The notes: generated by a model not told the origin, from the letters alone. Numbered from the stretch's first letter, positions 11,165 through 41,831 are shown. The stretch is 64,000 nt of DNA from Hamadaea tsunoensis DSM 44101 (GCF_000428945.1 NZ_AUAX01000035.1:15368-79367); one strand, 5' to 3'. A program made the numbers and translations.

Positions 11165-11979
11165 TTCAAGATCTTTTTAAAGATTTTGTCCCGGGTTCGT
11201 CGATCTCACTTCCGCTCCTCCCGCGGGAGACCGTTGCGCCCCTATCGCTGCGCTCCGGGGACTCCACTGCCAGCACAGTGGGGCGAAGCATCGTTCACCG
11301 TCGTCCGGTCACCGTTTACCCCGAACCCCGCCCCGGCCTTTGTCGCGACTGTCCGAAATGGTGGTTGGGTGGGTCGGCTTGCTGGTGACCGTTCGCGGCG
11401 GGGATGTAGTTTTCGGGGCTGTTCTCTCGATCCATTGCGGCTGGGATGTCGATTCGGGCTGGTTTTCTACATCCGCCCGCTGTGGATCTTGGGTGCGGGT
11501 GCGTTTTTACATCTCGGCCGCTGTGGATCATGCCCAAGCCGTCAGGCCGTCCCGGGTGGTCCGGGATGCGGGAACGGTCTTCCGTCATGTGGGCGCCGGG
11601 CCTGGGTTTCTTGATCGTTTGCGGCTGGGGTGTAATTCTGGCCCGATCTGCATGATCGTTTGCGGGTCAGGTGTAGCAATAGCCGGTCAGTGCGCTCCGG
11701 AACCGTAAACGATCATGCGGGAGGCGGCTGTTCTGCACCTCAGCCGTAATCGATCACCCGCCCGACCGGGCGGGCGGCCGCACAAGTTGGACAGTCGGGA
11801 CAAAGTCCGGTGGGGGTTGGGGTGAGAGGGTGACCGGGCCGCGGTGGATGATGCTTCGCCCCACAAACCTGGCAGTGGAGGTCCCGCCCGGGTTTGGCGG
11901 GGCCGGAGCGGTCTCCCGCGCGAGGAGCGGAGGTGAGATCGACGAACCCGGGACAAAATGCTCTCACGGATCTTTATTA
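11165..11979. mobile_element. MITE-like non-autonomous element copy A (~815 bp) with long terminal inverted repeats, no credible ORF
   Basis: Left end TTCAAGATCTTTTTAAAGATTTTGTCCCGGGTTCGTCGATCTCACTTCCGCTCCTCCCGCGGGAGACCGTT is the reverse complement of the right end AACGGTCTCCCGCGCGAGGAGCGGAGGTGAGATCGACGAACCCGGGACAAAA...GATCTTT; in this copy the TIR extends to ~130 bp; second copy at 41008-41831. Confidence 0.6.
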
Positions 11980-12867
11980 GAACGACTTGAACGACCGGAT
12001 CGGCATGCGGGGGCCGAACCGTGGCGCGCCGATGCCCTCGCGGAGCAGGAGTTGGCAGACGCGGCCGCGGTGACCTCGGAAGGGCTCCAGGAGTTCGAGC
12101 ATCCGCTCGTCGGTGGCGCGTGGTTCGCCCGCGAGCGCCCAAGCGACCTGGTTCTTGAGGTGGTAGTCCCCGACGCTGACCGCGTCCGGATCGCCGTACG
12201 CGTTGCGCAGCACCTCGGCCGTCGTCCACACCCCGATGCCGTGCACGGCGAGGAGGCGTTGCTCGGTCTGTACGCGTTCGCGCAGCGGCCAGGGCTGCCG
12301 GGCGACGCGCAGGACGGTGTCGGCGCGCTTCTGTTCGAGGCCGAGCGGGTGGAAGTCGTAGTACCGCAACGCCGCCACCTGCTCCTGATGCGGCGGCAGG
12401 AGGAGGGACGCGTGCGGACCGGGCGCGGACTCCCGGAACTTGCGGACGATCGCCGAGTACGCCTGGTACGCCTCCTTCCCGGTGACCTTCTGCTCGCATA
12501 TGGCCCGCAGGACGTGCGGGAAGACGAGGCCCGTGGCGGGCAGCCGGAGCCCGGCGTGCCGGCGGGCGAGGTCGGCGACGAGCGGATGGGCGGCGGCCAG
12601 CTCGGCGAAGGCGGTGAGGTCGTCGCGGAGCCCGTAGACGGCGTCCGCCCGGTCGAGGAACCACTCCGCCCCGTCCCCGTACGCTTCCGCGGTCCCGTCC
12701 GGGTGCAGGCCGAGCGATCCGGGCCCGGACGGCGTACGCCCGGCGAGCCAGAAGACGCCGTCGATGAACCGGACGGACGGGTCATGCCGGCCGAGGGACA
12801 GCTGGCCGAGCGAGCCGGCGAAGTCGTACCTCGCCGGCAGCTCGATGGTCCTGGTCAGCCGGTGCAT
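11977..12867 (-). CDS. alkA: HhH-GPD DNA glycosylase, AlkA-like (DNA-3-methyladenine glycosylase II)
   Basis: HhH-GPD region ...LLAVHGIGVWTAEVL...GDPDAV...D; AlkA-like N-terminal domain; its stop codon TAA lies inside the conserved right end of the MITE-like element. Confidence 0.7.
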   Translation of the reverse strand: MHRLTRTIELPARYDFAGSLGQLSLGRHDPSVRFIDGVFWLAGRTPSGPGSLGLHPDGTAEAYGDGAEWFLDRADAVYGLRDDLTAFAELAAAHPLVADLARRHAGLRLPATGLVFPHVLRAICEQKVTGKEAYQAYSAIVRKFRESAPGPHASLLLPPHQEQVAALRYYDFHPLGLEQKRADTVLRVARQPWPLRERVQTEQRLLAVHGIGVWTTAEVLRNAYGDPDAVSVGDYHLKNQVAWALAGEPRATDERMLELLEPFRGHRGRVCQLLLREGIGAPRFGPRMPIRSFKSF

Positions 12868-12938
12868 GCCGACCATTGTGCCTGGGCGGCTCCCCTGGGC
12901 CCGTCTTCCGGATCATCCGTGGTCCAGGAGACGGGACT

Positions 12939-13886
12939 CTAGCGGGCCGAGGCGCTCACCAGTGCCCGCTGGAGGAGCTTGGTGTCGCCGAGCATCCGGC
13001 GCAGCCGCTGTTCCAGGCCGCCGATCGGGATGAGCTGCTGAGGTGCCCGCGGATCCTTGACGACGCTCGACGCGTACCGGGGGAGGGTCGCGCAGGACAG
13101 GTGGGCCAGGTCGATCGCGGCCTGCGGGGACAGCTCGGCCGAGCATTCGACCCGCACGACGCCCGACCAGGGGATCGCCATCCCGCCGGGCTGGCGCAGG
13201 TACCAGGTGTAGCGCGTCCAGCGGCCGCCGATCCGGAACACCGGCGTACGCTGCCCGGGCGCGAGCTCGCTGACGACCGGGAGCAGGTGGTCGGGCAGGT
13301 ACTGCTTCTGCTGCGTCTTGGCGTAACCGAGGACGCGTGGGGGTGCGCCCGGTCCCCGGAGCGGGCCGTCGACCACGATCAGCTCGTCGCCGCCGTCGGC
13401 CAGCGTGGTGAGGACGTCCGCGGTGGTCTGCTGCTCCAGGTGCATCAGCGCGGACTGCGCCGCGGCCATCAGATCGGCGTCCTGGGCGCCCTCGATGAGC
13501 CTGGCCGTGTAGCGGATCGAGCCGCCGGCGGCCGCCACATCGGACTGGTCCCGGGCGGCGGTGAAGATGGTCCGCTCGACCTGTGCCGCCGCGACCTGGG
13601 CCCCGGTGGCGGTGCAGCGGACCACGCCGGCCGCGTACGAACAGGCCAGTCCGGGGTAGGGCGGCAGGCCGCCGGAGCCGGCCGTCCAGATACGTGCGTC
13701 GATCCGGCGTACGCCGTCGACCATGAGGACGGTGGCCGGCGGGGTGAGGCCGGCCGGCGCGCTGAGCGGGCGCCACTCGCTCGCGGGCAGCTCCACGTCG
13801 ACGTCGAGTCCGTCGGCGGGGCTGCCCGGGGCCGCGTCGAGGCTCGCGCCGTACGACGGGTCCCAGGCATCGACGTGGAAGCTCAT
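12939..13886 (-). CDS. Putative NurA-like 5'-3' nuclease (RNase H-like), last gene of the herA-sbcD-sbcC operon
   Basis: Archaeal herA-mre11-rad50-nurA operon order; hhhhDG-type motifs (FHVDAWD, ELIVVDGPL); ~315 aa; start overlaps the sbcC stop. Confidence 0.5.
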   Translation of the reverse strand: MSFHVDAWDPSYGASLDAAPGSPADGLDVDVELPASEWRPLSAPAGLTPPATVLMVDGVRRIDARIWTAGSGGLPPYPGLACSYAAGVVRCTATGAQVAAAQVERTIFTAARDQSDVAAAGGSIRYTARLIEGAQDADLMAAAQSALMHLEQQTTADVLTTLADGGDELIVVDGPLRGPGAPPRVLGYAKTQQKQYLPDHLLPVVSELAPGQRTPVFRIGGRWTRYTWYLRQPGGMAIPWSGVVRVECSAELSPQAAIDLAHLSCATLPRYASSVVKDPRAPQQLIPIGGLEQRLRRMLGDTKLLQRALVSASAR

Positions 13887-13896
13887 GGCCAGATTT

Positions 13897-16377
13897 CTAC
13901 CCGATCCTGTCAACTCGGGCGGACCGGCCGTCTTTGCGTACCTCGAAGCGGACAGGTATGCGTTCGGCCAGCGCCGCGACGTGGGTGACGACGCCGACCA
14001 TCCGGTCGCCGCGGGCCGCGAGGTTCTCCAGGGTGGCCGCCACCGTGTCCAGCGTGGCGGAGTCGAGCGTGCCGAACCCCTCGTCCAGGAGGATGGATTC
14101 GAGGCTGGCCGTGTGCGCCAGGCCGGCCAGCTGGTCGGCGAGGGCGAGCGCGAGCGCCAGGGAGGCCTGGAACGTCTCGCCGCCGGAGAGCGTACGCACG
14201 GCGCGGGTCAGCCCGGCGTCGTGGTGGTCGACGACGTAGAACTCCCGCGCCCGGTGCACGAGGTCGTACTGGCCGCCGGACAGCTCCTGCAGGATCGTCG
14301 AGGCGCCGAGGACCAGCGCGTCGAGGGCCTCCTCCAGCAGCCAGGCCTCGAAGTTGTTGGCCTTGAGGTGCTGGGCGAGCATGGCCGCGACGACCTTGTC
14401 GGCCTCCACGGCGGCGCGCTGCTGACGGAGATCGTCGGCCCGCCGCCGCGCGTCCAGTACGCGTTCCCGCCCCGCCGCCGCCCGCTCGACCGCGATGGTG
14501 ACCGCCTTCTCCAGGCCGGCGATCTCCTTCGGCATCATGACCTCGGCGATCCGGAACCATTCGGCGACCTTGGCCAGCAGTTCCTGTTCGGTGCGGCTGG
14601 CCTCGGCCACAGCCTGCTCGGCGGCGGCCCGGTCGGCGCCGACCTTCCCGGCGGTCGTGGCCGCCCAGTCGGCCAGCACCTGCCACGCGACCCGCAGATC
14701 GTCGCGCTCGACCGGCGGCGGAGTGCCGATCGGGGCGACCGTGTCGCGGGCGGCGTCGAACACCCGCCAGGCCGAGCGCAGCTGATCCTCGGCGCGCTGC
14801 AGCTGCGTCTGGGCCGCCCGCTGCCGCTCGGCAGCCTGCTTGCGTTCCACTGTGGATCGTTCGAGATCGGTTTCGGCTTCGCGTCGTACCGCCAGGCGCG
14901 CGGCCAGCTCCTCGTCGCTGGGCGCGGTCGCGAGCGCCTCCTGGATCCGGGCCACCTGCTGGGCCAGTTCCTCGACCTTGGCGCGCACGGAGGCGAGCCG
15001 GCGGTCGGTCTCGCGGGCGGCCTGGTCGCGTTCGCCGCGCGCCGCCTCCGCCTTCTCCGCCGCCGCCCGAGCCTGCTTCAGGCGGTCCTGGGCGGCGACG
15101 GTGGCGCCGACCGACCGCTGCTGCGGCAGGGTCGTGACGATCTGCTCGCAGACCATGCACGCCTCGCCGGCATGCAGCAGCGGGCGCAGGACGGCGACCC
15201 GGTCGGTGTTGCGGGCGTCCTCGAGCACCTGCTGAGCGTGGCCGAGGGCGGTGGCCGCGCTGTCCGCCACACCCCGGACCCGGTCCAGGTCGCGGACGGC
15301 GGTGTCGTGCTCCTCCTGTGCCTTCGCGAGCGCGGCGGCGCCCTGCTTCTGCCGGGCCAGACCGGCGGCGAGATCCTGCCGCGACTTCACGAAAGCCTGG
15401 GTCTCGGCCGGGTCCGCGGTGGTCGCCAGCCGCGCCCTCGCCTTCTCCTCGGCCTCCTCGGCGGCGGTCAGCACCTCGGCCGCGGCCGACACCCGTTGCC
15501 GGGCCTCGTCGGCGGCCCCCGCGAGGTTGACCGCTCCGGCGTCCGGCCGGATCCGGCCGAGCGCGGCCAGCTGGCCGTCCAGGGTGGCGAGCTTCTCCAC
15601 GGCGGCCTGCCGGCGCGCGTCCAGCGCCGTGAGCCGCGGCGCCTCGGCCGCCAGCCGGTCGGCGAGGTCGCGGACGGCGGTGACCCGGTCCTCCGCGTCG
15701 GCCAGCCGCTCGTCCGAGGACTCCTCGGTCGCCTCGGCCAGGACGCGCTCCGTCGCCGCCAGCTGGTTGACGGCGGCCTTCTCGCGCTCGGCGGCCTTCT
15801 CCCGGATCTTGTCGTAGACCTCCAGCCCGAGCAGCTTGACCAGGATCTCCTGGCGCTCGGCCGGCTTGGCGTGCAGGAACGCCGCGAACTCGCCCTGCGG
15901 CAGCAGGATGCACTTGATGAACTGGTCGTAGGGCAGGCCGACCACGTCCACCACGGCGCCGTCGAGCTCGTTCGGCGTACCGGCGAGGATCTGGCCCAGC
16001 TCGTCGATCGGCTCGCCGCCGTCGAGGGAGGCCGGATTGAAGTTGTTCGGCAGCAGCTGCAGACCCGCGTGCTTGGTCGCGACCCGGCCCTTGCCGTCGC
16101 GGCGCACGACCCGGCTCACCGCGTACCGGCGGCCGCCGGACTCGAAGATCATTCGAACGGCCGCCTCCACACTGGACGGAGCCAGCGCGTTCGCCACCGT
16201 CTTGCCGCTCCACCGCGGCACCTGGCCGTAGAGCGCGAAGCAGATCGCGTCGAGCAGCGTCGACTTGCCGGCGCCGGTCGGCCCGACGAGCGCGAAGAAG
16301 TCCGCGTCGGTCAGGTCGACGACCGTCGGCTCCCGGAAGACCGTGAACCCCCGCAGGTCCAGCCGGAGCGGGCGCAC
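13897..16377 (-). CDS. sbcC: SbcC/Rad50-type SMC-like ATPase (short, 826-aa form)
   Basis: N-terminal Walker A LVGPTGAGKSTLLDAICFALYG; long coiled coil with a CMVC zinc hook (CxxC); C-terminal signature LSGGETFQASLALALAL and Walker B/D-loop ILLDEGFGTLD. Confidence 0.85.
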   Translation of the reverse strand: MRPLRLDLRGFTVFREPTVVDLTDADFFALVGPTGAGKSTLLDAICFALYGQVPRWSGKTVANALAPSSVEAAVRMIFESGGRRYAVSRVVRRDGKGRVATKHAGLQLLPNNFNPASLDGGEPIDELGQILAGTPNELDGAVVDVVGLPYDQFIKCILLPQGEFAAFLHAKPAERQEILVKLLGLEVYDKIREKAAEREKAAVNQLAATERVLAEATEESSDERLADAEDRVTAVRDLADRLAAEAPRLTALDARRQAAVEKLATLDGQLAALGRIRPDAGAVNLAGAADEARQRVSAAAEVLTAAEEAEEKARARLATTADPAETQAFVKSRQDLAAGLARQKQGAAALAKAQEEHDTAVRDLDRVRGVADSAATALGHAQQVLEDARNTDRVAVLRPLLHAGEACMVCEQIVTTLPQQRSVGATVAAQDRLKQARAAAEKAEAARGERDQAARETDRRLASVRAKVEELAQQVARIQEALATAPSDEELAARLAVRREAETDLERSTVERKQAAERQRAAQTQLQRAEDQLRSAWRVFDAARDTVAPIGTPPPVERDDLRVAWQVLADWAATTAGKVGADRAAAEQAVAEASRTEQELLAKVAEWFRIAEVMMPKEIAGLEKAVTIAVERAAAGRERVLDARRRADDLRQQRAAVEADKVVAAMLAQHLKANNFEAWLLEEALDALVLGASTILQELSGGQYDLVHRAREFYVVDHHDAGLTRAVRTLSGGETFQASLALALALADQLAGLAHTASLESILLDEGFGTLDSATLDTVAATLENLAARGDRMVGVVTHVAALAERIPVRFEVRKDGRSARVDRIG

Positions 16378-17517
16378 TCAGCTCACCTCCTGGTACAGCT
16401 GCTCGAACAGGCGCTGCGTCGCGGGATCGTCGTGGCCCCGGTCGCGCAGGTAGTCGGCGAAGAGATCGGTGGGAGAGCGCTCGGCGCGCGTCGTCCGGCT
16501 CGGCTTGTCCCCGTCCAGCAGGGCGGGGTCGACCCGGATCTCCAGCGCGCGCGGCAGCATCTCCTGCACCTTCTCCCGCAGCCCGGCGTGCGGCTTCTCC
16601 TGCACGATCACGCGCAGCCAGTCCTCGCCCGGCTCCAGCGAGGCCAGCTCCTCCAGCGTCCCCCGGACGGTACGCAGACGCGTCGTCACCGGCAGCGGCA
16701 CGGCCCGGACGAGGGCCGTCGTGTCGGCGGTCGCCTCGACGACCGTCACCGACGGCTCGTTCTCGCCCTCGCCGAAGTCGATCGCGATCGGGCTGCCGCT
16801 GTAGCGCACCGGGCACGCGCCGGGCATCGTCTGCGCCCGGTGCAGGTGGCCCAGCGCCACGTAATGCGTGTTCGACGGGAAGACGGTGGTGGGGACGGCG
16901 TACCCGAGGATGGTGTGGGCCTCCCGCTCGCCGCCGCCCATCGCCGCGCCGACGACCGTCAGGTGCGCGGTCACGAGGTTCACCGCGGCCGGGTCGGAGA
17001 AGCCCTCGGCCGCGATCGCCGACAGCAGCCGGGCGAGGTGGTCGGCGTAGGTGCTGTGGGCCTCGGCCTGGGTCAGCTCGAACATGTCCAGCGCGCGGAC
17101 CGCGTACCGCTGGGAGAGGAAGGGCAGGGCGATGCACCGCCACGGCTCGCCGCCCGGCGTGACCCCGGTGATGAGGTGGTCGTCCGGCTTGTCCGAGACC
17201 CGGCCGCGCAGGTGCAGGTTCTCGGTCTCGGCGAAGACCCGCAGCGCGTCGAGGGCCGGGCCGTTGTCGTGGTTGCCGGCGATCACGATCACCTCGGCGA
17301 CCTGCCGCAGCGCCGCCAGCGCCCGGTAGACGACCTTCTGCGCCTCGGGCGTCGGTGCGGCGGTGTCGAAGAGGTCGCCGGCCACGATGATCAGGTCGGG
17401 CCGCTCCTCGCGGGCCACGCCGATCACCGCGAACAGCGCGGCCAGCTGCTCGTCCGACCGGGACTGTCCCTTGAGGACCTTCCCGACGTGCCAGTCGGAG
17501 GTGTGCAGGATCTTCAC
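16378..17517 (-). CDS. sbcD: SbcD/Mre11-type calcineurin-fold nuclease
   Basis: MKILHTSDWHVG...IIVAGDLFD...GNHD...GHLH phosphoesterase motifs; its start abuts the sbcC gene. Confidence 0.9.
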   Translation of the reverse strand: MKILHTSDWHVGKVLKGQSRSDEQLAALFAVIGVAREERPDLIIVAGDLFDTAAPTPEAQKVVYRALAALRQVAEVIVIAGNHDNGPALDALRVFAETENLHLRGRVSDKPDDHLITGVTPGGEPWRCIALPFLSQRYAVRALDMFELTQAEAHSTYADHLARLLSAIAAEGFSDPAAVNLVTAHLTVVGAAMGGGEREAHTILGYAVPTTVFPSNTHYVALGHLHRAQTMPGACPVRYSGSPIAIDFGEGENEPSVTVVEATADTTALVRAVPLPVTTRLRTVRGTLEELASLEPGEDWLRVIVQEKPHAGLREKVQEMLPRALEIRVDPALLDGDKPSRTTRAERSPTDLFADYLRDRGHDDPATQRLFEQLYQEVS

Positions 17518-17545
17518 GCCGGAAGCCTCCCGGGGTCGCTGTGGA

Positions 17546-19348
17546 TCAGAACGGGATGTCGTCGTCGGAGATGCCGCCGTCGCGGGCCGCGCCGACCACG
17601 GTGAACGGGTCGGTCGCGCTGACCATGCTGGCCAGCGTCGCCCGCGGGGCCGCGCCCGCCTCGGACGGTCGCGTCGCCCACGCCGGGAACGGGAACTCGA
17701 CCGCCAGCGGCACCGGGATCTCCGGCTGCGCCACGAACATCGTGCCCGGCTTGGCCAGCAGCGCCCGCTGCCGTTGGGTCGGCGGGAGGAACCCGTATTC
17801 GGGGCGGGACGCCTCGGCGGGGTCGAGCCGGCCGACGACGCGGACCGCGGAGTTGGAGACGATGCGGCGCTCCACTTCGGACGCGGTCTGCTGGGCGCCG
17901 ATCAGGATCACGCCGAGGGACCGGCCCCGCTCGGCGATGTCGAGCAGCACTTCCTTGATCGGGCTGGAGCCGTCGCGCGGCGCGTACTTGTTGAGCTCGT
18001 CGAGGACGACGAAGAGCAGCGGCTTGGCGGTGCCCGCCTTCTCCTTGCGCTCGAACTCGGTCTTCAGCGTGACGCCGACGACGAACCGCTGCGCGCGGTC
18101 CGGCAGGTTGTGCAGGTCGACGACGGTGACCTGGCCCGCCTCGGCGGTGCTGATCTGGTGCGCACGCCCGCCCGGCAGGTCGCCCCGGATGAGCCGGCCG
18201 AGGTCGCGCTTGCTGGCGATCAGCCGCCGCGCGAAGGCGTTGACCGTGCCCAGGCCGACCGCGCTGCCGGTCCAGCCGGACCGCGTCTCGTCGTCGTTGA
18301 GCTGCTCGACCACGTAGTCCACGAAATCGTCGTAGCTGCCGAGCCGGCGGCCGCCGATGCTCAGCGCGCCGCCCGCGGGCAGCGCCTCGCGGGCGAGGTG
18401 CGCGGTGACCGCGTGCACGACCATCGTGTACTGCTGGCGCTCGTCGTCGGCGTCGGCGAAGACGTAGGGCAGCAGGCGCTGCTCGGCGAACTCGGCCAGG
18501 GTCCAGTAGAAGGGGTCCACGCCGGTCAGCCGGCTCGCCACGTCCGGGCTGCCGGAGGGGTCGCCGGCCCGCGCCGGCGCGAACACCGTGACCTGCTTGA
18601 AGGCGCCGGCGTCCAGGCCGAGCTTGTGGTACGCCTCCCGCGTCGGCGCGTCCAGCCGGTTGTTCTCGTGGTCGAGGAAGAGGAGGTCCTCACCTTTGAC
18701 GTTGAAGATCAGCGCCTTGGTGTTGGCCGATTCCGCCTTCGAGCCGAGCACACCCGAATTGAAGATCGAATAGAGCAGGAAGGTGGCGAAGCTCGTCTTC
18801 GTCGCGACGCCCGAGATGCCGGAGATGCTGACGTGCGCGCCCCGGCTGCCGTCCAGGAAGTCGGCGTTCAGGTAGAGCGGCGCGCCGTCGCGACCGGTGC
18901 CGATGGGCAGGCGGCGGCGCATCCGGTCGAAGCTGAGCGCCGCGTCGCGGGTCTCGCCCTCGGCCCGGTACGCGACCGCGCCCGGCGCCGGCGGCACGTA
19001 GACCTCGGGTTCGACCCGGGTGACCGTGATCTCGGCGGCCTCCTGGACCATCGCGGGCAGCATGCCGTCGGCGATGGCGAAGACGTCGGACTCGAACGCG
19101 GCGCCCTCGTGCCGGGCACGCACGGAGGTCACGACGCCGGAGATGGTGACCGTGCCGCGGTCGGGCAGCTCGCGCTGGGTGACCACGACGTCGTCGAGCT
19201 GCAGGTACGCGTCGGAGCCCACGGCGACCCAGAAGGTCAGCGGGCTCGCGTCCTGCGTTCCGAGCACGCGCCCGACCGGCGTGCCCGGAGATGCGTCGTT
19301 GCTGGGGGTGCGCGCGGGGAAGCTCACGAGACAAGACCCTAGTGCCAA
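17546..19348 (-). CDS. HerA/FtsK-like (DUF87) ATPase, first gene of the herA-sbcD-sbcC-nurA operon
   Basis: N-terminal HAS-barrel-like region; degenerate P-loop GISGVATKTS; Walker B LLFVVLDELNKYAP; 600 aa. Confidence 0.65.
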   Translation of the reverse strand: MALGSCLVSFPARTPSNDASPGTPVGRVLGTQDASPLTFWVAVGSDAYLQLDDVVVTQRELPDRGTVTISGVVTSVRARHEGAAFESDVFAIADGMLPAMVQEAAEITVTRVEPEVYVPPAPGAVAYRAEGETRDAALSFDRMRRRLPIGTGRDGAPLYLNADFLDGSRGAHVSISGISGVATKTSFATFLLYSIFNSGVLGSKAESANTKALIFNVKGEDLLFLDHENNRLDAPTREAYHKLGLDAGAFKQVTVFAPARAGDPSGSPDVASRLTGVDPFYWTLAEFAEQRLLPYVFADADDERQQYTMVVHAVTAHLAREALPAGGALSIGGRRLGSYDDFVDYVVEQLNDDETRSGWTGSAVGLGTVNAFARRLIASKRDLGRLIRGDLPGGRAHQISTAEAGQVTVVDLHNLPDRAQRFVVGVTLKTEFERKEKAGTAKPLLFVVLDELNKYAPRDGSSPIKEVLLDIAERGRSLGVILIGAQQTASEVERRIVSNSAVRVVGRLDPAEASRPEYGFLPPTQRQRALLAKPGTMFVAQPEIPVPLAVEFPFPAWATRPSEAGAAPRATLASMVSATDPFTVVGAARDGGISDDDIPF

Positions 19349-19443
19349 CCTGCGACAAGACCGGGCCGGCGGGGCGTGCCGAGTCGTTTTGGCGACACCG
19401 GACCACCCCGCCGGGCAGCGGAAACTCTCAATAGAGGTTCATC

Positions 19444-20993: not shown

Positions 20994-21013
20994 CTCTCCT
21001 CAGGGGTCGCCGA

Positions 21014-21045
21014 TATTACGACCCGGCCCGGAGATAGGTTGCCCG
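21014..21045 (-). promoter_or_regulatory. Candidate ECF-type promoter (GGCAAC-N16-TCGT) upstream of the sigma gene; possibly autoregulatory
   Basis: Minus-strand GGCAACctatctccgggccgggTCGTaat about 20 nt upstream of the GAGGAGA SD and start codon. Confidence 0.25.
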
Positions 21046-21086
21046 GCGCCGACCCGATTTTCCGCGGGCCCGCGACCGGCGGGACC

Positions 21087-21749: not shown

Positions 21750-21757
21750 GGACGGAA

Positions 21758-22789: not shown

Positions 22790-22926
22790 ACTGTATGCGG
22801 CCTATAGGCGATTCATGCCGAGTTCACAGGCGCGTCGCCGCCGTTCGGCCGGTACGCGATTGGACCGGTCGGCGGAGGCGTCACTGGTCGGAAGGCGTGA
22901 CCTCGGTATCGACCCGGGTAACAACT

Positions 22927-22940: not shown

Positions 22941-22948
22941 TCCGCCGC

Positions 22949-22977: not shown

Positions 22978-22979
22978 CA

Positions 22980-28837: not shown

Positions 28838-28948
28838 CAAGATCCGCCCCAAGATCCCGTTTGGATCAGGGATCCGCACGTAATCTTGGTCCAAGATTCG
28901 GGTGATTTCCCTGACCCAAACGGGATCCTGGGGGGCGGATCTTGGGTG
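28838..28948. repeat. ~100-bp palindromic intergenic repeat, copy 1 (arms GATCCCGTTTGGATCAGGG...CCAAGATTCGGGTGATTTCCCTGA(T/C)CCAAACGGGATC)
   Basis: Near-perfect inverted repeat seen directly; further copies at 34391, 50623 and 58011. Confidence 0.6.
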
Positions 28949-30982: not shown

Positions 30983-31000
30983 CGCCCCGGCCGTCACGCG

Positions 31001-33001: not shown

Positions 33002-33122
33002 TGTGGCCTCCAGCCACGAGAAGGGTCGATCAAGACGCTAGACCCTGTCCGCAAGCGGATGTTCGCCGCCAGCACATCTGACCGCCATCGATGTGTCCGC
33101 CGGGTGCCGTACCAACAGCGCC

Positions 33123-34376: not shown

Positions 34377-34390
34377 GTGTCTATCATGGC

Positions 34391-34487
34391 CGCCAAGATC
34401 CGGTTTGGATCAGGTTTTCGCACGTAATCTTGGCCCAAGATTCGGGTGATTTCCCTGATCCAAACGGGATCTTGGGGGCGGGACCCG
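34391..34487. repeat. Palindromic intergenic repeat, copy 2, between convergent gene ends
   Basis: GATCCGGTTTGGATCAGGTTTTCGCACGTAATCTTGGCCCAAGATTCGGGTGATTTCCCTGATCCAAACGGGATC. Confidence 0.6.
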
Positions 34488-34498
34488 CGGGGTAGCGG

Positions 34499-35401
34499 TC
34501 AGGCGGTGACGAGGGAGAGGTGGGTGGGGGCGACCTCGATCGCGACGCGCTGGCCGAAGGCCAGGGTCAGCCGGTCGTCCTCGATGCCGTCCGCGAAGCA
34601 GACCAGCTGCTCGCCCTCGCTCGTCAGTTCCAGCCGCCGGCCGCTCTCGACCAGCCCGGCGGTCAGCGTGACGCCGGTCGCGGGGGAGGGCCAGGCCTCG
34701 CGGACGAACCAGGCGAGCTCGGCCTGCTCGGGCGCGGGCAGCGCGGGCGAACTGGCCCGCTCGCGGGCGATGGACGCGCACCAGCCGGTCGCGCCCGTAC
34801 CCGTCCCGGCGATCACCCCGGACGACGACTGCCGCTCCCGGCGTCCGTCCGGTGTGGACAGGGCGTACCGGGCGGACTGGTGGCTGGTGTGGCCGAAGAA
34901 GATCTCGTTGAGCCCGGTGATCCGCTGGCCGTCGTCGAGGGTCGCCATCGCCATCGTCCGCCGCTGCACCGCCGCCCGCCCCGCCTGCACCGCCGGCAGC
35001 AGCCCCGCGACCTGCCCGGCCCGCAACGGCACGAGTACGCCGGCGTTGCGCCCCGGCTCCGGATCTACCCCGAGGACCGGCTGGCCGGACAGGTACTTGG
35101 CGACGTTGGCGACCAGCCCGTCGGGGCCGACGGCGACCACGATGTCCTCGGGCCCGAACAGGAACCGGGACAGGTCCGCCCGGCTGACCGAACCCCGCCG
35201 CCACGAGGCCGGAATGGCGGCGCTGACCGAGATCAGCGCCGCCTCCAGCGCGTCGTGCCGCACCTGCACCTCGTCGAGGCTGCGCTTGCGCTGCTTGAGG
35301 AAGTAGCCGGCGGCGGCGCGCGTACCGTGGCGGTCGAGGAGCTCCTCCAGCTCGCTGTGGCGCGACACGATCACCACCCGCGGCGCGAGCGAGCTGCTCA
35401 T
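34499..35401 (-). CDS. ATP-NAD kinase-family protein with a variant GGDG motif (GPDG)
   Basis: VVAVGPDGLVANVAKYL in place of GGDGT; NEIFF (NE/D short motif); conserved glycine-rich C-terminal region; ATGA overlap with the upstream SPFH gene. Confidence 0.55.
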   Translation of the reverse strand: MSSSLAPRVVIVSRHSELEELLDRHGTRAAAGYFLKQRKRSLDEVQVRHDALEAALISVSAAIPASWRRGSVSRADLSRFLFGPEDIVVAVGPDGLVANVAKYLSGQPVLGVDPEPGRNAGVLVPLRAGQVAGLLPAVQAGRAAVQRRTMAMATLDDGQRITGLNEIFFGHTSHQSARYALSTPDGRRERQSSSGVIAGTGTGATGWCASIARERASSPALPAPEQAELAWFVREAWPSPATGVTLTAGLVESGRRLELTSEGEQLVCFADGIEDDRLTLAFGQRVAIEVAPTHLSLVTA

Positions 35402-36465
35402 GTGTTCTTCGTACGCCGTTGCGCGGGCACCTCGCCACCGCCCGGGGCCAGCCGCTGCAGGAGATCGGTGACGACGTCCGGGGTGATCGTGAGGGCCTTG
35501 ATGTCGGGCAGCTTCCCGGCGAACTCGCGCACGGTCACGGACTGCAGGACGGCATCCGGCAGGTCCCGGTACGCCGCGAGCCGCGCCGCCTCCTTCTCGG
35601 CTTCGGCGAGGCCGAGCGCGCGGACGGCGGCGGCCCGGGCGTCGGCGAGCACCTTCTCGCGTTCGGCCTGCCCGGCCGTGGCCAGCTTCTCCCGTTCGGA
35701 CTGGCCCTGCGCCTCGGCGAGCTGCGCGGCCGCGTCCAGTTCGGCCTGCCGCCGGGCGTTGGCGCCGTGCTGCTCGACCAGCTGCTGCTCTCGCCGGGCG
35801 AGCTCGATCTTGTTCTGCAGCTCGTTCTCGGCGATCGCCCGCTCCTGCTCGACCGCCTGGGCGCGGCGGGCGTACGTGGCCCGGTCGGCGTCCGCCTGGA
35901 CCGTCTCCCGGGTCGGCGTCTGCAGGGCCCGCTCCAGCTCCGGCTCGGGCCGGATGGCGACCACGCGCGCGCTGACGACGCGTACGCCGAGATCGGAGAG
36001 CCGGGCGTCCTCGGCGAGCGCGGCGGAGACGGCCTCGCGCACCGGCGAGATCCCCGCGGTGAGGGCCTCGGCGAGCGGGAGGCGGGCCAGCAGGTCGAGT
36101 GCGGGCTGCTGGGCGAGCTCCGCGAGCAGCGTGGCCACCTGGTCGAGCGGGCGGGCGGCCGCGGCGCCGGTGGCCGGGTTGATGGAGAAGTCGAGGCGCG
36201 AAGCGGCGGCCGCGGGGTCGGCGACGCGATAAGTGACCGTCGCCTGGACGGTGATGTCGCTGAAGTCGGCCGACCGCGCGTGGAACAGCAGCGGCAGCTC
36301 GCGGTCGTCGACGGGGACCTCGCTGAGCACGGCGGTCAGCGGCCGGTACCAGAAGGACAGGCCGACGCCCTCGCGCTTGACCCGGCCCTTGGCGTGGTGC
36401 CTGATCCAGGTGGTGGGGGTGCTGCGCAGGTGCCGAAGGAAGAACCGACGGGAGATGTCGGCCAT
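35398..36465 (-). CDS. SPFH/band-7 domain protein with Ala/Glu-rich coiled-coil C-terminus
   Basis: SPFH core (TVQATVTYRVADP...); coiled coil; middle gene of a three-gene operon. Confidence 0.7.
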   Translation of the reverse strand: MADISRRFFLRHLRSTPTTWIRHHAKGRVKREGVGLSFWYRPLTAVLSEVPVDDRELPLLFHARSADFSDITVQATVTYRVADPAAAASRLDFSINPATGAAAARPLDQVATLLAELAQQPALDLLARLPLAEALTAGISPVREAVSAALAEDARLSDLGVRVVSARVVAIRPEPELERALQTPTRETVQADADRATYARRAQAVEQERAIAENELQNKIELARREQQLVEQHGANARRQAELDAAAQLAEAQGQSEREKLATAGQAEREKVLADARAAAVRALGLAEAEKEAARLAAYRDLPDAVLQSVTVREFAGKLPDIKALTITPDVVTDLLQRLAPGGGEVPAQRRTKNT

Positions 36466-36480
36466 GGGGGGAGTCCTTTC

Positions 36481-37170
36481 CTACGCTCTATGGGGGGTCT
36501 TCGCGTCCCCGGGAGTCTTCGCGGTACGGCGGGACAGCATTCCGGCGAGCCGGGAGAACACGATGATGAGCAGCCAGGAGAACTCGGCGTAGTCCGGCTT
36601 CGCGAAGGCGATCGGGATGGACAGCGCGAAGACGAACGCGGCCACCCCGGCGCCGACGATCATGTTGTGGCTGACGTGCGCCGGCGTACCCTTGCGCCAC
36701 AGCTTCTGCCGGTTGGCGGTGATCACCATGAGGATGAGGGCCAGCGACCAGAGGATCATCGCGCTCGCGTAGAAGACCGGGCCGAGCGGGCCGCCGTTGT
36801 CGACGCTGAGCAGCCGCGTTCCGAACGGCACGACCACGATCGCGAACAGGCTCACCATGTTGAGGAAGACGAGCCGGCCGCTGAGCACGTTGATGCGCTG
36901 GAAGAACCGGTGGTGCTCCCACCAGAAGAACGAGATCACGGCGAAGCTGATGGCGAAGGACCGGTACTCGTCTCCTCCCGCCAGGAACTCCACCCACACC
37001 TCATGGGTGCTCTTGCCGAGGCCCTCGGGCACCGGCAGCTCCAGCGCCAGCAGCGTCAGCGCGATCGCGATCACGGCGTCGGAGAAGTAGATGGTCCGTT
37101 CGAGGCTGTGGCCCGGCTCGTCGAGGTCGGCGGTCGTTTCGGCGGTCGTCGTCACGGCGTCATTCTGCAA
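36481..37170 (-). CDS. DUF1211 / TMEM175-like membrane protein (putative K+ channel homologue)
   Basis: Signature RTIYFSDAVIAIALTLLALEL in TM1 (TMEM175 family FSD..AIA.TLL); six predicted TM segments. Confidence 0.65.
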   Translation of the reverse strand: MQNDAVTTTAETTADLDEPGHSLERTIYFSDAVIAIALTLLALELPVPEGLGKSTHEVWVEFLAGGDEYRSFAISFAVISFFWWEHHRFFQRINVLSGRLVFLNMVSLFAIVVVPFGTRLLSVDNGGPLGPVFYASAMILWSLALILMVITANRQKLWRKGTPAHVSHNMIVGAGVAAFVFALSIPIAFAKPDYAEFSWLLIIVFSRLAGMLSRRTAKTPGDAKTPHRA

Positions 37171-37262
37171 TACGCCCGACAGTTGTGGGACTCGCCGGTC
37201 GCCCGCCGTCTACGCTCGCCCCCGGTTCCGCCCGGCCGGGCGGTCAGGCTCAGGGAGACTCC

Positions 37263-37895
37263 ATGGCGGTCGTCAGGCGTACGGGCAACGTCGTACCACA
37301 TCAGACAGCAGCGGCAGCACCCGCGACACCGGCGGCGTCGGACACCGCGGCGGCGCCGACCAAGCCCGCCCACCTGTGGGCCGTGGCGATCGGCGTCGGC
37401 TTCGTCGCGGCCGGCCTGCTCGGGGGGTACCTGATCTGGAACGGCATGCACGCCAACACCTTCCGCGCGACCAGCGAAGGATCCATCTTCGCCGCCCTGG
37501 TCGTCTTCACCGCCGCGGTCGAGCGGGTCATGGAGCCCTTCACCCGCTGGCTGCCCGGCAAGACCGCGCAGCAGAAACTGGACTGGGCGATCGCCGCGAT
37601 GGAGAACGGCGTCGGCAGCGTCGTCAGCGCCGCGGACGCCAAGGCCGGGGCCGAGCAGGCCAAGGCGGACAAGGGCGTCATCGCCTGGGGCATCGCGACC
37701 GCGCTGGCCACGCTGTTCTCGGCGGGCAGCGGGTTCTACATGCTCCACATGATCGCGTCGAATCCGGACTGGAACGTGATCCCGCAGTGGCTGGACGCGC
37801 TGATCACCGGCCTGATCGTCGGCAGTGGAACCAAGCCCGTGCACGACCTGATCAGCCGCGTACAGCAGGCGAAGGACAAGGTCGCGGGCCTGTAG
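37263..37895 (+). CDS. Hypothetical membrane protein (3-4 TM segments)
   Basis: ORF with SD GGGAGAC 6 nt before the ATG; hydrophobic segments; no recognisable family. Confidence 0.45.
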   Translation: MAVVRRTGNVVPHQTAAAAPATPAASDTAAAPTKPAHLWAVAIGVGFVAAGLLGGYLIWNGMHANTFRATSEGSIFAALVVFTAAVERVMEPFTRWLPGKTAQQKLDWAIAAMENGVGSVVSAADAKAGAEQAKADKGVIAWGIATALATLFSAGSGFYMLHMIASNPDWNVIPQWLDALITGLIVGSGTKPVHDLISRVQQAKDKVAGL

Positions 37896-38004
37896 CTCCT
37901 TCTCTCCTCTCCCCCTCTTCCGGCGATCTTGCGCGAATGTTCGGGCCTGTCGGGCATTCCGGACGAATTTTGAGACATTCGTGCAAGATCGTCGGGAGCG
38001 GAGA

Positions 38005-39405
38005 TCAGTTCTTGCGGGACCCCAGGAGCCAGCCCTTGCGGACGGGGCCGGATTCCGGGCCGCCGAGTTGCAGCCGTTCGGGGGTGATCACCGGCAGTTC
38101 TCCGGTCGGCTCGGACAGGCCGGGGACCGGCGGCCGGACGATCGGTGCTGCCCGGCGCTGGGCGGGGATGGCCGGCGTCGGGACCGGTGCCGTCGCCGAC
38201 GCGTGGAACGGACAACGGCCCAGGTCGCGGGCTGTCTCGTCGAGGTAGAAGTTGGGGCGCTGGTCCGCTTCGGGGTAGTACCGGTGGAAGACCGGCGAGA
38301 TCGAGCCCGACATCGGCGGCACGAGCCAGGTCCAGTCCCCGGGGACGGTACGCCCCGACCGTTCCTCGCGTTCGATGTGCGTCAGGAAGTGCCGGGACTC
38401 GGTGTGGTGGTCGGCGATCTTCACGCCGGCCTGCTCGAACGACCAGAGGACCGCGCGGTTGAGCTCGACCAGCGCCCGGTCCCGCCAGAGGGTCGTCTCG
38501 CGGCCGGTGTCGAGGCCGAGCCGGGCGGCGATGACCGGCAGCTGGTCGTAGCGGTCGGCGTCGGCGAGGTTGCGCGCGCCGATCTCGGTACCCATGTACC
38601 AGCCCGAGAACGGGGCGAGCGGATAGTGCACGCCGCCGATGGTCAGCCGCATGTTGGAGATCGCCGGTACGCCGTGCCACCGCAGCCCCAGCTCGGCGAA
38701 CCACGGCAGGTCGGGGTGGCTGAGCGGCACTTCGAGGACGGCGTCCTCGGGCAGGTCGACGAGGTGGGGTTCCTGCCCGGGTTCCTGCAGGACGAGCGGC
38801 AGGATGTCGAACGAGCTGTGCTTGCCCCGCCAGCCGAGCTCCGACACCGCCTCGGTGAACTCCACGTACGCCTGGTCGCCGAGCCCGTCGCGGTAGCCGG
38901 CGTACCGGATGAGCTGCTCGTTCCACAGCACGGTACGCGGCCGCCCCGGCACGGCCTGCGGGAAGATCGAGATGACCGGCCGCAGGCGGCCCCGGTTCAC
39001 GCCCCGGCCGGAAGCCATCAGCAGGTGCTCGACGAGGTGCTCGGCGGTGGCCTCGACGGTGGTGACCCCGCGCAGGTCGCGGACGACCAGACTGTTCCAG
39101 TAGAGCCGGCCGATGCACCGGCTCGCGTTGCGCCACGCCATCCGGGCACCGTGCGCCAGTTCCGCGCGGGTGTGCGCGTACGTGCCGAGGGCGGCGATCT
39201 GCTCGCGTACCTGCTCGATCCGGTGTGCCGCCTGGGCGTCCCCGCCGAGCTTGGGGTTCTCGGCGTACACCCGTTGCAGGAAGTCCGCTGCCTCGTCGGG
39301 ATCGGTGGGCTCGTTGTGGAACTGGCTGAGGGGCGCATCACGATAGCCGGGGGGCGGGTTCATTCCGTCAGTTATTGGTGTGGCTTGATGCGGCGTGTCG
39401 GACAT
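38005..39405 (-). CDS. nos: Bacterial nitric oxide synthase oxygenase domain with a ~70-aa Pro-rich C-terminal extension
   Basis: GARMAWRNASRCIGRLYWNSL (heme Cys loop); RYAGY; WYMGTEIGARNLAD; end-to-end alignment to bsNOS; start codon uncertain (39405 or 39363). Confidence 0.85.
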   Translation of the reverse strand: MSDTPHQATPITDGMNPPPGYRDAPLSQFHNEPTDPDEAADFLQRVYAENPKLGGDAQAAHRIEQVREQIAALGTYAHTRAELAHGARMAWRNASRCIGRLYWNSLVVRDLRGVTTVEATAEHLVEHLLMASGRGVNRGRLRPVISIFPQAVPGRPRTVLWNEQLIRYAGYRDGLGDQAYVEFTEAVSELGWRGKHSSFDILPLVLQEPGQEPHLVDLPEDAVLEVPLSHPDLPWFAELGLRWHGVPAISNMRLTIGGVHYPLAPFSGWYMGTEIGARNLADADRYDQLPVIAARLGLDTGRETTLWRDRALVELNRAVLWSFEQAGVKIADHHTESRHFLTHIEREERSGRTVPGDWTWLVPPMSGSISPVFHRYYPEADQRPNFYLDETARDLGRCPFHASATAPVPTPAIPAQRRAAPIVRPPVPGLSEPTGELPVITPERLQLGGPESGPVRKGWLLGSRKN

Positions 39406-39485
39406 AATGTGCGACACGCGTGGGCCACACATGACCGAATGTCGATGCCGCTCGGACGGGGGAGCCCTTCCCGGTGACCGTCCGT

Positions 39486-40115
39486 CTAGGCGACGGCCTC
39501 CCGCACCGCCGGGCGCAGCGCGTACACGACACCGGTCGCGAGCAGGAACTGGGCCAGGATGTAGGTGGTCATCACCCAGATGTCCGACGGCCACAGCTGC
39601 GGCCGGTCGGCCAGTCCCATCGCGAGGATCGCGTCGGACACGACGAACAGCAGCCCGCCGAGGCCCGTACGCAGGCCGTAGCCGGCCGACGTCGCGCCGG
39701 TGGCGATCAGCAGCAGAGAGTAGGCCGCCACCGGGACGCGCAGACCCGCGTCCAGCCCCGGCCACAGCCACACGATCAGCAGCAGCCACACGACCAGGTA
39801 GGCCGCCGGGATCCACGGCCGCCTGCGCAGGCCCGCGAAGGCGCCGTTGCGCACGAAGTACGTCACGTAGCAGGCGTGCCCGACCGCGAAGCACCCCATG
39901 CCGACGATGAACCAGCCGTCGAAGCCCAGCGTGATGTCGCCCGCCGCGCCGAACAGCAGCGCCGCGACGATCGGCTTCGGCCCCCGCCGCGTCGCCACCC
40001 ACAGCGCCAGCGTGGGCACCAGCACCCACTTCGTCAGCTGCTCCAGCCAGTGCGGCCCCGTTTCGAGCGAGACCAGATGAGCCAGACCCACCATGGCGTA
40101 CGCGACGAGGATCAT
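39486..40115 (-). CDS. YhhN-family membrane protein (TMEM86/lysoplasmalogenase-like)
   Basis: Eight TM segments with YhhN motifs (FGAAGDITL...FVVSDAILA); ATGA overlap with the upstream hydroxylase gene. Confidence 0.65.
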   Translation of the reverse strand: MILVAYAMVGLAHLVSLETGPHWLEQLTKWVLVPTLALWVATRRGPKPIVAALLFGAAGDITLGFDGWFIVGMGCFAVGHACYVTYFVRNGAFAGLRRRPWIPAAYLVVWLLLIVWLWPGLDAGLRVPVAAYSLLLIATGATSAGYGLRTGLGGLLFVVSDAILAMGLADRPQLWPSDIWVMTTYILAQFLLATGVVYALRPAVREAVA

Positions 40116-40960
40116 GCGTCTCCCTCCGAGCGGGACGGCTGCCAGCCCGGGCCGCCGAAGACACGGCCGAGGCGCTCACGCCAGGTCGTGGCGGCCTTCA
40201 GGTCACGGCCGATGGACGCGTACTCGTGCAGGGCCACGCGCAGCGGGTTGAAGGTGTCGATGTTCTTGGTCAGGCCGTAGACGGGCCGCTCGGTCTCCGG
40301 GGCGAACGAGCCGAAGAGCCGGTCCCAGACGATCAGGATGCCGCCGAAGTTGCGGTCCAGGTACCCGCCCTGCGAAGCATGGTGTACGCGGTGGTGCGAC
40401 GGCGTGTTCAGCATGAACTCGAACGGCCGGGGCAGCCTGTCGATGCGCTCGGTGTGGATCCAGAACTGGTACACCAGGTTCACCGAACTGCAGAACGCCA
40501 GCACCGCCGGGTGTACGCCGAGCGCGATCATCGGCAGGTAGAACAGCCAGCTCGTGAAGCCGGTCCACGGCTGCCGGAGGGCGGTCGACAGGTTGAACCG
40601 CCGGCTGGAGTGGTGCACGACGTGCGACGCCCACAGCAGCCGGATGTTGTGGTGGCCCCGGTGCGACCAGTAGTAGAAGAAGTCCTGGGCCAGCAGGCAC
40701 AGCAGGATCCACTGCCACTCGATCGGTACGCGTACCGGCGTGACCGTGTAGATCGCCGAGTACACGAGGGCCGGGATGATGCCCCAGAGCGTGTCGAAGA
40801 AGAGGCTGCCCAGGCCCATGGACAGGCTCGTGGCGGTGTCCTTGGCGCCGTAGCCGACCTCGTCCTCGTCCGGATGGAGCCGGTAGGAGATCGCCTCCAG
40901 CAGGGTGAGCAGGATGAACGCCGGGACGGACCACAGCACGACGTTGGGCAGCGCGGGCAT
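40112..40960 (-). CDS. Fatty acid hydroxylase superfamily membrane di-iron oxygenase (sterol desaturase / alkylglycerol monooxygenase-like)
   Basis: Histidine boxes HRGHH, HVVHH and HHRVHH; four TM segments. Confidence 0.7.
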   Translation of the reverse strand: MPALPNVVLWSVPAFILLTLLEAISYRLHPDEDEVGYGAKDTATSLSMGLGSLFFDTLWGIIPALVYSAIYTVTPVRVPIEWQWILLCLLAQDFFYYWSHRGHHNIRLLWASHVVHHSSRRFNLSTALRQPWTGFTSWLFYLPMIALGVHPAVLAFCSSVNLVYQFWIHTERIDRLPRPFEFMLNTPSHHRVHHASQGGYLDRNFGGILIVWDRLFGSFAPETERPVYGLTKNIDTFNPLRVALHEYASIGRDLKAATTWRERLGRVFGGPGWQPSRSEGDA

Positions 40961-41007
40961 GCGCGGGATACTAGCGAGTACTTTTCGCGTTAGGAAGAGG
41001 CTTCAAG

Positions 41008-41831
41008 TTCAAGATCTTTTATAAGATTTTGTCCCGGGTTTGTCGATCTCACGTCCGCTCCTCGCGCGGGAGACCGTTTACCCCCAACCCCTGCCCGGCC
41101 TTTGTCGCGACTGTCTGATGTGGCGGCTGGGTGGATCGGCTGGTCGGTGATCGTTCGCGGTGGGGATGTAGTTTCCGGGTCCATCCTCTCGATCCATTGC
41201 GGTTGGGATGTGGGTAGAGGCTGTTTTCCTGCATCCCGACCGCCGTGGATCTTGGAGATGGGGTGCGTTTTGACGTCTCAGCCGTTGTGGATCACGTCCA
41301 CGCCGTCCCGCTGAGAGCCATAGTCCGTGATGCGGGAACGATCTTCCGCCAGGCGGGCACGGCGCACTGGCTCCTTGATCGTTTGCGGCTGGGGTGTAAA
41401 TCCGGCCCGATCTGCATGATCAATTACGCGTCAGGTGTAGCAGGACCCGGTCAGCGCGCTCCAGAACCGTAAACGATCATGCATCGGGTGGCCGTTTCCA
41501 CACCACAGCCGTAAACGATCACCCCACCGACCGCCGCCCCGCACCCATATCGGACAGTCGCGACAAAGCCAGAACCGGCCAGGGCGGATGGTGACCCCGA
41601 TCCTCAAGATCGTCGACCGCGACCGCCGCAAGCCGGACAGTCAGGACAAGGGCTGGGCGGGGGTGGCGTTGGACGGTGACCGGACGACGGTGGACGATGC
41701 GTCGCCCCAGAAAGCTGGCAGTGGAGTCCCCGGAGCGCAGCGACAGGGGCGCAACGGTCTCCCGCGGGAGGGGCGGAAGTGAGATCGACGAACCCGGGAC
41801 AAAAGAGCTTAAAAGATCTTGAATTTATTTA
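41008..41831. mobile_element. MITE-like non-autonomous element copy B (~824 bp), same orientation as copy A
   Basis: Same ~50-bp TIRs (TTTTGTCCCGGGTTTGTCGATCTCACGTCCGCTCCTCGCGCGGGAGACCGTT / reverse complement at the right end); same internal sub-repeats; a left-arm deletion relative to copy A. Confidence 0.6.

Follow-up and report, generated by a model that had tools for sequence, protein, structure and literature searches.

A 64,000-nt stretch of the Hamadaea tsunoensis DSM 44101 genome (GCF_000428945.1, NZ_AUAX01000035.1:15368-79367), here called the window, contains two copies, A and B, of a non-coding repeat about 830 bp long. A prediction made from the sequence of the window had described the repeat as an ~815-bp element with terminal inverted repeats (TIRs). 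Its basic unit is instead an arm of about 200 nt. Each arm has its own ends, the direct repeats DR1 and DR2, and the 830-bp form is therefore an inverted doublet of arms around palindromic cargo. The family matches no searchable sequence; it is new, and it is of a known general kind, that of interspersed non-coding repeats. With confidence and doubt about evenly balanced, we favor the interpretation that these sequences are a lineage-restricted family of non-coding, non-autonomous mobile repeats in which the arm is the unit and the composite is an inverted doublet with cargo.

Anatomy of the two copies

Copies A (about 11154-11979) and B (about 41002-41831) lie in the same orientation, and alignment confirms the original prediction on this point. 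They are clearly related, with 605 matches and 126 mismatches (83% identity over aligned bases, with 193 gap columns), although not quite at the 85-90% first proposed; shuffled controls give 44%. Both large indels sit in B. One is an 81-nt deletion inside its left arm, and the other is an extra block of ~70-90 nt in its right part that carries a second copy of a subterminal repeat. A 24-nt core, TTGTCCCGGGTTNGTCGATCTCAC, marks all four ends of the two copies and is found nowhere else in the window (four occurrences against a chance expectation of 0). The ends had been called perfect inverted repeats of 50-130 bp; they are inverted, and perfect over this core, but they are imperfect beyond it and reach 190 nt. 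Over that length the A-left and B-right arms show 86% complementarity, and the complementarity within copy A is 84% over 75 nt and 75% over 85 nt. Similarity between copies and between ends runs outward from the core into an AT-rich motif, TTCAAGATCTTTTTAAGATT, and the edges are placed where they are because of this. The right edges are those originally given, while the left edges move out from 11165 to about 11154 in A and from 41008 to about 41002 in B. The resulting composites are 826-829 bp long, at the large end of the size range of miniature inverted-repeat transposable elements (MITEs).

The copies encode no protein, as had been supposed from the want of a credible open reading frame (ORF). 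Codon-phase GC is flat across the element at 0.59-0.65, and GC at third codon positions in the neighboring genes is 0.85-0.97. The longest spurious ORF in the element has no protein relatives among 5.8 billion sequences.

Alignments give the order of parts in the arm from the outside inward. An outer AT-rich motif around AAGATCTT, which evolves fast by indels, is followed by DR1 (TTTTGTCCCGGGTTCGTCGATC) and by a near-invariant block of about 60 nt. Next comes a hairpin in which stem changes are compensated (GGCCC/GGGCC, GGCGC/GCGCC, GCCTC/GAGGC) and the loop is 4 or 13 nt, then the block CCTCCACTGCCAG..TGGGGCGA, a small ACCG-N5-CGGT hairpin with a hypervariable loop, a C-rich stretch, and finally DR2 (CTTTGTCCCGACTGTCCGATATG). 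The left arm of copy A has all of these between its two direct repeats: the invariant block, the variable hairpin, CCTCCACTGCCAG..TGGGGCGA, the ACCG-N5-CGGT hairpin, and the C-rich stretch. The arm as a whole is not a simple palindrome. DR1 and DR2 are direct repeats of each other, each resembling a tandem pair of TGTCCSGA half-sites, and the arm's own two ends are thus direct rather than inverted repeats. Neither forms a convincing hairpin. Extra copies of DR2 bracket unrelated inserts in copy B and in a composite at another locus, L034, with two DR2' in each. Just outside the arm at locus L020, the start of DR1 is partly duplicated in tandem (about 78-115, minus strand), as CTTGTCCCGGGTTCATCTCCATT and then TTGTCCCGGGTTCGTCG, which hints at slippage or at repeated action at DR1.

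Between the arms, the internal sub-repeats noted originally are present, but all are pieces of a single 24-nt motif, TGATCnnTTnCGGnnnrGrTGTAG. A motif hidden Markov model (HMM) places eight copies of it in each element in the order ++--++--, and these form two palindromic modules of about 150 nt. The motif was seen only inside composites. A resemblance of TGATCCACA and TTTGTCC to DnaA boxes is present in just two of the eight motif copies.

Insertion sites and distribution of arms

Copy B is a genuine insertion: only 28 nt separate the stop codon of bsaP from the start of a fatty-acid-hydroxylase gene in both H. flava and Hamadaea sp. NPDC050747, and in the window about 830 nt lie there. The original end of bsaP, cctcttccTAAcgcg, is still recognizable on the hydroxylase side of the copy (40986-41000). 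BsaP itself (41829-42035, minus strand) here runs into the element and ends in HGIQTS-stop, where its relatives, taken from L003:11005-11193 and L004:11146-11325, end in HGARSS-stop or HGERSSGSS-stop. The junctions of copy B show only an imperfect direct repeat of 9-12 nt (ACCTC-CTAA vs GCCTCTTCCTAA), for which the ancestral state is not reconstructable.

Copy A is bordered on one side by the terminator of a GH18 chitinase gene and on the other by the stop codon of an HhH-GPD glycosylase gene. The glycosylase C-terminus, PIRSFKSF-stop, is conserved in relatives, which indicates that copy A starts at or just after the native stop and that the gene is intact. No syntenic empty site for copy A was found in relatives, which have different genes downstream of their glycosylase. 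The idea that the right end of the element supplies C-terminal codons to both of its neighbors was rejected at copy A on account of the conserved PIRSFKSF-stop, and it stands only for bsaP. The 29-kb interval from A to B was also considered as a composite transposon or island. This was rejected, as the flanks of B are adjacent in relatives and the scanned genes between the copies are ordinary and syntenic, which makes A and B independent insertions.

Scanning metagenome sequence with the DR1 core gave 27 loci, of which about 15, all in the JGI metagenome Ga0170475, have an arm with 78-92% identity to those of the window. The sigma-factor locus of this metagenome, L007, has 95.8% nucleotide identity to the host strain and is the sole arm-bearing locus compared. 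Each Ga0170475 locus has one arm with no inverted pair and, apart from L029, no 24-nt motif; several of the contigs stop inside the arm, so that the inner flank is unseen there. Among solo arms with a visible inner flank, most stop at or close to DR2, and ordinary genes come next (fumC, genes for a sulfate-binding protein and a NUDIX hydrolase, and convergent gene ends). Beyond the window there are three composites (L029, L034 and L020), and solo arms outnumber composites where the inner flank can be seen. Arms are thus found as four copies at two loci in the window, at at least four loci in the host strain, and at about 15 in its close relative. Contigs of the Logan assembly SRR29904089, which encode the window proteins exactly, have arms at the sigma-factor locus and at a YdjM locus.

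These two loci can be compared among strains. The sigma-factor locus has an arm in the host strain (L036), in the strain about 96% identical to it (L007 and L035), and in L034, a 99% relative of L007. The form differs, L034 being a composite and L007 and L035 solo arms. The flanks of L034 and L007 are 99% identical, their divergence begins exactly after CCGATATG of DR2, and the inner halves of their arms differ. Part of the inner half of L034 is, by eye, closer to the arm at L009 than to that of L007, a resemblance suggesting that sequence is exchanged between arm copies. The convergent genes at the YdjM locus are 3 nt apart in relatives (TGAcggTCA), and in three samples of the H. tsunoensis lineage, the host strain included, an arm is found 4 nt past the stop. 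Relative to sister species, then, both the composites and a solo arm have been inserted.

For about 12 of the 15 arms with an identifiable outer neighbor, that neighbor is a co-oriented gene whose stop codon or terminator hairpin precedes the arm by 0-81 nt, and many arms sit between convergent genes. TAA stops terminate three of about nine genes that abut the outer ends of arms, and would be expected to be rare in a genome of 71% GC. At two TAA-ending genes beside arms the relatives use TGA or TAG. The end of the element may contribute to the stop codon or reshape it.

Searches outside these samples were empty, in keeping with the original failure to recognize a described family. The DR1 core has no match in 185,579 bacterial and archaeal species genomes (one genome per species), and the 12 matches of the internal invariant block in the same set are all due to chance and confined to the pattern. 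Distant blastn searches with the whole element found nothing in 72,556 plasmids or 50,697 phages, and viral contigs gave 0 matches. The Rfam 15 covariance models have no match in the window at the gathering score, and at permissive E-values give only chance-level matches to miRNA and mini-ykkC families. One of these, Guanidine-II (mini-ykkC) at 11542-11589 on the minus strand in the central spacer of copy A, reaches 20.3 bits, where the gathering score is 32 (E = 0.14); it is probably due to chance, since its first loop departs from ACGR and copy B does not conserve its second hairpin. On the strength of these searches the family appears to be restricted to the H. tsunoensis lineage. No paper linking MITEs with the Micromonosporaceae was found in the literature, and none of the seven papers listed as mentioning H. 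tsunoensis appears from its title and abstract to concern repeats.

Strand asymmetry, mechanism and competing explanations

Each copy is predicted to form a single long foldback that has two hairpins inside it (z-scores -22 and -15). At palindrome positions whose halves differ by a transition, the mismatch is usually a G.T wobble on the plus strand of the window. Wobble counts in the plus and minus senses are 33 vs 7 in copy A (p = 4e-5) and 23 vs 9 in copy B. The module at L034 has an asymmetry in the opposite sense (0 vs 11). The predicted RNA minimum free energy of copy A is -543.7 kcal/mol for the plus strand and -453.6 kcal/mol for the minus strand. When the window arms are polarized against the metagenome consensus, the changes run in the same direction, C-to-T and A-to-G on the plus strand, in small counts. 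A family of unrelated 91-nt palindromes in the same window shows no such strand bias, again in small numbers. The bias has two readings: either a single strand, as DNA or RNA, is the functional form, or one strand is more exposed to deamination than the other. Transversions and transitions are equally common among the mismatches, so the structure is not under strong selection. The original prediction had proposed folding the interior as a check for a structured RNA; the foldback is strong, but there is neither an Rfam match nor more than weak covariation. When four proposed arm hairpins were tested for covariation, 94.5% of cells proved to be paired, only one pair was changed on both sides, and most helices were invariant, a level of variation too low to back an RNA structure.

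On the interpretation that we favor, the arm of about 200 nt would spread as a non-autonomous unit mobilized in trans, by an enzyme encoded elsewhere in the genome that would act on the tandem TGTCCSGA half-sites of DR1 and DR2. In a composite, two inverted arms would enclose one or two palindromic modules of ~150 nt as cargo. The enzyme would more likely be a recombinase or a transposase acting on single-stranded DNA (ssDNA) than one of the classical DDE cut-and-paste type, because solo units predominate, the ends are direct repeats, target-site duplications are lacking, rearrangement breakpoints fall at DR2, and pairing is kept on one strand only. We give only slight credence to the further proposals that the arm is an ssDNA-transposed unit, with an HUH-type enzyme or a recombinase reading DR1 and DR2, or that it is a mobile gene for a guide- or bridge-type RNA without its recombinase. 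If either is true, the composite would be an inverted doublet able to capture palindromic cargo and carry it between DR2 sites.

Several points weigh against this interpretation. Neither the junctions of copy A nor, on inspection by eye, those of the solo arms have a recognizable target-site duplication. A transposase-bearing autonomous relative was found neither among the scanned ORFs of the window nor in the metagenome contigs, the 185,579 species genomes, the plasmids or the phages. That the arm-bearing Ga0170475 contigs other than L007 come from the same Hamadaea strain is assumed. Two orthologous arms are common to strains about 96% identical, many copies therefore being old, and the support for present activity of the family is indirect. 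Solo arms could in principle be decay products of composites. The strand-asymmetry counts of A and B are not independent, owing to shared ancestry, and a strand-biased mutation process could be the source of the asymmetry. The outer ends of the elements carry an uncertainty of a few bases.

The original prediction of a non-autonomous DNA transposon thus holds insofar as the repeat is a non-coding insertion present in multiple copies; a TIR element as the basic unit, a clear target-site duplication and a transposase-bearing relative are not found. The ~830-bp composite could nevertheless be a classical MITE, a deletion derivative of a DDE element moved by cut-and-paste through its TIRs, with the solo arms as one-ended remnants. 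The long inverted arms of the composite, its conserved 26-nt tip and the imperfect direct repeat flanking copy B (ACCTC-CTAA vs GCCTCTTCCTAA) are as expected of such an element. So are the two TTTGTCC-type motifs per arm, which are like the multiple subterminal transposase sites that are a feature of the IS21, Tn7 and Mu families. One-ended remnants would not be expected to outnumber composites or to stop, as most do, at or near DR2 rather than at random points, and with the lack of a duplication at copy A and of any transposase-bearing relative in the genomes, plasmids or phages we regard this explanation as unlikely. That about 12 of 15 arms follow a co-oriented gene so closely, 0-81 nt from its stop or terminator, would also suit a structured RNA with a function in the host, or a terminator or stabilizer in 3' untranslated regions, that spread by duplication, the composite being a convergent pair. 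The near-invariant 60-nt block, the concentration of variation in loops, the few compensated stem pairs and the G.U-type asymmetry, which implies that one strand matters, would all fit. Co-orientation says little, however, when many arms lie between convergent genes, and sister species lack the element at these loci, which means that it is not a conserved regulatory feature. Rfam offers no match even at permissive thresholds, covariation amounts to one pair changed on both sides, no promoter-like or terminator-like consensus in the arms rises above shuffled expectation, and around copy B the bioB-bsaP and hydroxylase genes are antisense to the strand that folds better. We consider a host RNA of this kind improbable.

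The two remaining explanations deny that the family is new or that it is mobile. Known insertion sequence (IS) ends were not compared directly, which leaves some room for an unrecognized fragment of a known IS, prophage, plasmid or integrative element. We think this very unlikely, as the plasmid and phage collections contain no match, two independent conserved blocks are absent from the species genomes, and no ORF remnant has protein relatives. An ancient segmental duplication of an immobile intergenic region would account for there being only two copies in the window, diverged by 17%. The flanks of A and B are unrelated, however, copy B is missing from the conserved 28-nt space in two sister species, and many further copies exist at other loci. 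The situation that the original prediction had named as pointing to such a duplication, only two copies in syntenic positions in relatives, is thus not what is found, and this explanation, which the empty sites refute, is scarcely credible.

Should the direct-repeat ends and the wobble bias reflect mobilization, the mobile arms that we favor would provide a tractable actinobacterial model for the spread of repeats through hairpins or ssDNA. The family adds a well-delimited, lineage-specific set of repeats to a rarely studied actinomycete genus, and the unusual anatomy of its arms may reward a whole-genome census. Presence or absence of arms, and their solo or composite state, are markers for strain typing. 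Arms also explain breaks in short-read assemblies of H. tsunoensis, three of the Logan SRR29904089 contigs ending inside them. At copy B a near-perfect hairpin of ~830 nt occupies a place in a conserved gene array where sister species have a gap of 28 nt, with the last codons of bsaP rewritten, and may alter the expression of its neighbors. It probably uncouples the transcription of bsaP from that of the hydroxylase-YhhN-NOS genes.

Known repeat systems and other features of the window

In logic the Hamadaea repeats are closest to the REP/BIME/REPIN sequences and to bacterial MITEs, and they are members of none of the systems compared. REP, BIME and REPIN sequences, which RAYT transposases mobilize in Enterobacteria and Pseudomonas, are likewise non-coding, extragenic and located at the 3' ends of genes. 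They too are found as single units or as inverted foldback doublets, and both systems imply recognition of single strands or hairpins. In REPINs the doublet with its linker is the replicative unit, and no target-site duplication is expected. The REP unit is 20-40 nt in length, however, compared with ~200 nt for the arm, which has direct-repeat ends and a long invariant block. The doublet here also carries 400 nt of palindromic cargo, unlike a REPIN, and has no sequence similarity to one. No RAYT (an HUH Y1 enzyme) is known to accompany the Hamadaea repeats, and no RAYT gene was found in the window. The bacterial MITEs Correia/NEMIS of Neisseria, Nezha of cyanobacteria and bcr1 of Bacillus cereus are also non-coding, multi-copy and intergenic, and share with the Hamadaea composite inverted termini and insertion polymorphism between relatives. 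The composite differs from these in its large size of 826-829 bp, in arms of 190 nt that are far longer than the usual TIRs, in the predominance of solo arms, and in having no clear target-site duplication and no identified parent IS.

Resemblances to other systems are more partial. The BOX elements of Streptococcus pneumoniae, ERIC and RUP are, like the Hamadaea family, made of modular, reusable blocks with varying content, are structured when single-stranded, and have an unknown mobilizer. Their sequences and phylum are unrelated, and the modules here are nested palindromes. The MIRUs of Mycobacterium are actinobacterial as well, and they occupy very short intergenic spaces in which they touch or overlap the upstream stop codon. 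They are tandem direct repeats of 40-100 bp that often keep small ORFs, however, whereas the Hamadaea elements are dispersed, palindromic and non-coding. The PATEs derived from IS200/IS605, and other elements with asymmetric ends (IS110 and IS607), share with the solo arm the lack of TIRs and of target-site duplications, similar ends in direct orientation, and strand-specific structure. In contrast to IS200/IS605 PATEs, there is no conserved tetra- or pentanucleotide target by the outer end of the arm, and DR1 and DR2 make poor hairpins. No TnpA, TnpB or recombinase was found near the Hamadaea arms. More generally, no transposase or integrase was found among the window ORFs scanned against Pfam, a scan that left out some stretches, such as 26.4-29.0 kb and most ORFs beyond 46.7 kb.

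Features of copies A and B, adjoining genes and the second palindrome family. Positions are those of the window unless a locus is named.
Feature	Position	Strand	Basis or remark
Left outer AT-rich motif, copy A; TCAAGATCAAATTCAAGATCTTTTTAAAGA with self-complementary 8-mer AAGATCTT	11154-11183	+	Conserved between copies and ends and in 15 metagenome arms
Left arm, copy A; DR1 11184-11209, DR2 11338-11361	11184-11361	+	nhmmer E=2.6e-57; alignments
Palindromic module 1, copy A; motif copies M1, M2 (+), M3, M4 (-)	11386-11530	+	Motif HMM matches; fold
Palindromic module 2, copy A; motif copies M5, M6 (+), M7, M8 (-)	11612-11756	+	Motif HMM matches; fold; inverted repeat
Right arm, copy A, inverted; DR2' about 11783-11806, DR1' 11933-11958	11783-11958	-	nhmmer E=1.8e-51
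Right outer motif, copy A; abuts or overlaps glycosylase TAA stop (11977-11979)	11959-11979	-	C-terminus kept in relatives
HhH-GPD glycosylase gene	11977-12876	-	Native TAA stop at 11977-11979
Fatty-acid-hydroxylase gene	40112-40960	-	ATG 42 nt from left edge of copy B
Left outer AT-rich motif, copy B; 42 nt upstream of fatty-acid-hydroxylase ATG	41002-41026	+	Copy alignment
Left arm, copy B, with 81-nt internal deletion; DR1 41027-41052, DR2 41100-41123	41027-41123	+	Alignment, profile search
Interior, copy B; module 1 41148-41294, module 2 41376-41521; eight 24-nt motifs	41148-41521	+	Motif HMM
Extra DR2' (41545-41568), then ~60-nt insert absent from copy A	41545-41628	-	Copy and inverted-repeat alignments
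Right arm, copy B, inverted, full length; DR2' 41629-41652, DR1' 41779-41804	41629-41804	-	nhmmer E=3.3e-51
Right outer motif, copy B; ends at new bsaP TAA stop (41829-41831)	41805-41831	-	Empty-site comparison
Stop codons beside arms	11977-11979, 41829-41831; L019:986-988; L058 about 4636-4638		
91-nt palindromes	28849-28939, 34393-34483, 50622-50712, 58016-58106; also L036:2-97, L003:19317-19396		

The genes around copy B are those of a conserved Hamadaea neighborhood. BioB (42026-43066) is 100% identical to an H. tsunoensis protein (Micromonosporaceae), and its next relatives, at about 91%, are from other Hamadaea. Copy B separates the stop of bsaP, which is downstream of bioB, from an array of fatty-acid-hydroxylase, YhhN and NO-synthase-like genes (37736-40960, minus strand). 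This array has a conserved place beside the biotin operon throughout Hamadaea (L003, L004), and its NO-synthase gene was assigned from annotations of Logan and H. flava and not from the window scan. From bioB to a glycosyltransferase gene, the scanned genes are in the same order as in H. flava. The genes sbcC and sbcD, for a nuclease that cuts long DNA hairpins, lie 2 kb from the near-palindromic copy A (13897-17901, minus strand). Their nearness is probably a coincidence, since they have the same gene position in relatives that lack the element.

The unrelated palindromes mentioned above constitute a second intergenic family of nested palindromes of ~91 nt, CCAAGATCCCGTTTGGATCAGGG...CCCTGATCCAAACGGGATCTTGG. 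They recur at a further locus in the host strain and, as a weaker match, in H. flava, and this family is therefore older and genus-wide. Their termini, CCAAGATC, resemble the outer motif of the arm, AAGATCTT. Elsewhere in the window, at 48513-48890, tandem repeats of 12, 18 and 30 nt encode a Lys/Ala/Pro-rich tract of the AKKT/AAKK type. The tract lies inside a long ORF (about 46726-48915 or 48285-50606) and is similar to the histone-like tails found on actinobacterial HU or topoisomerase proteins.

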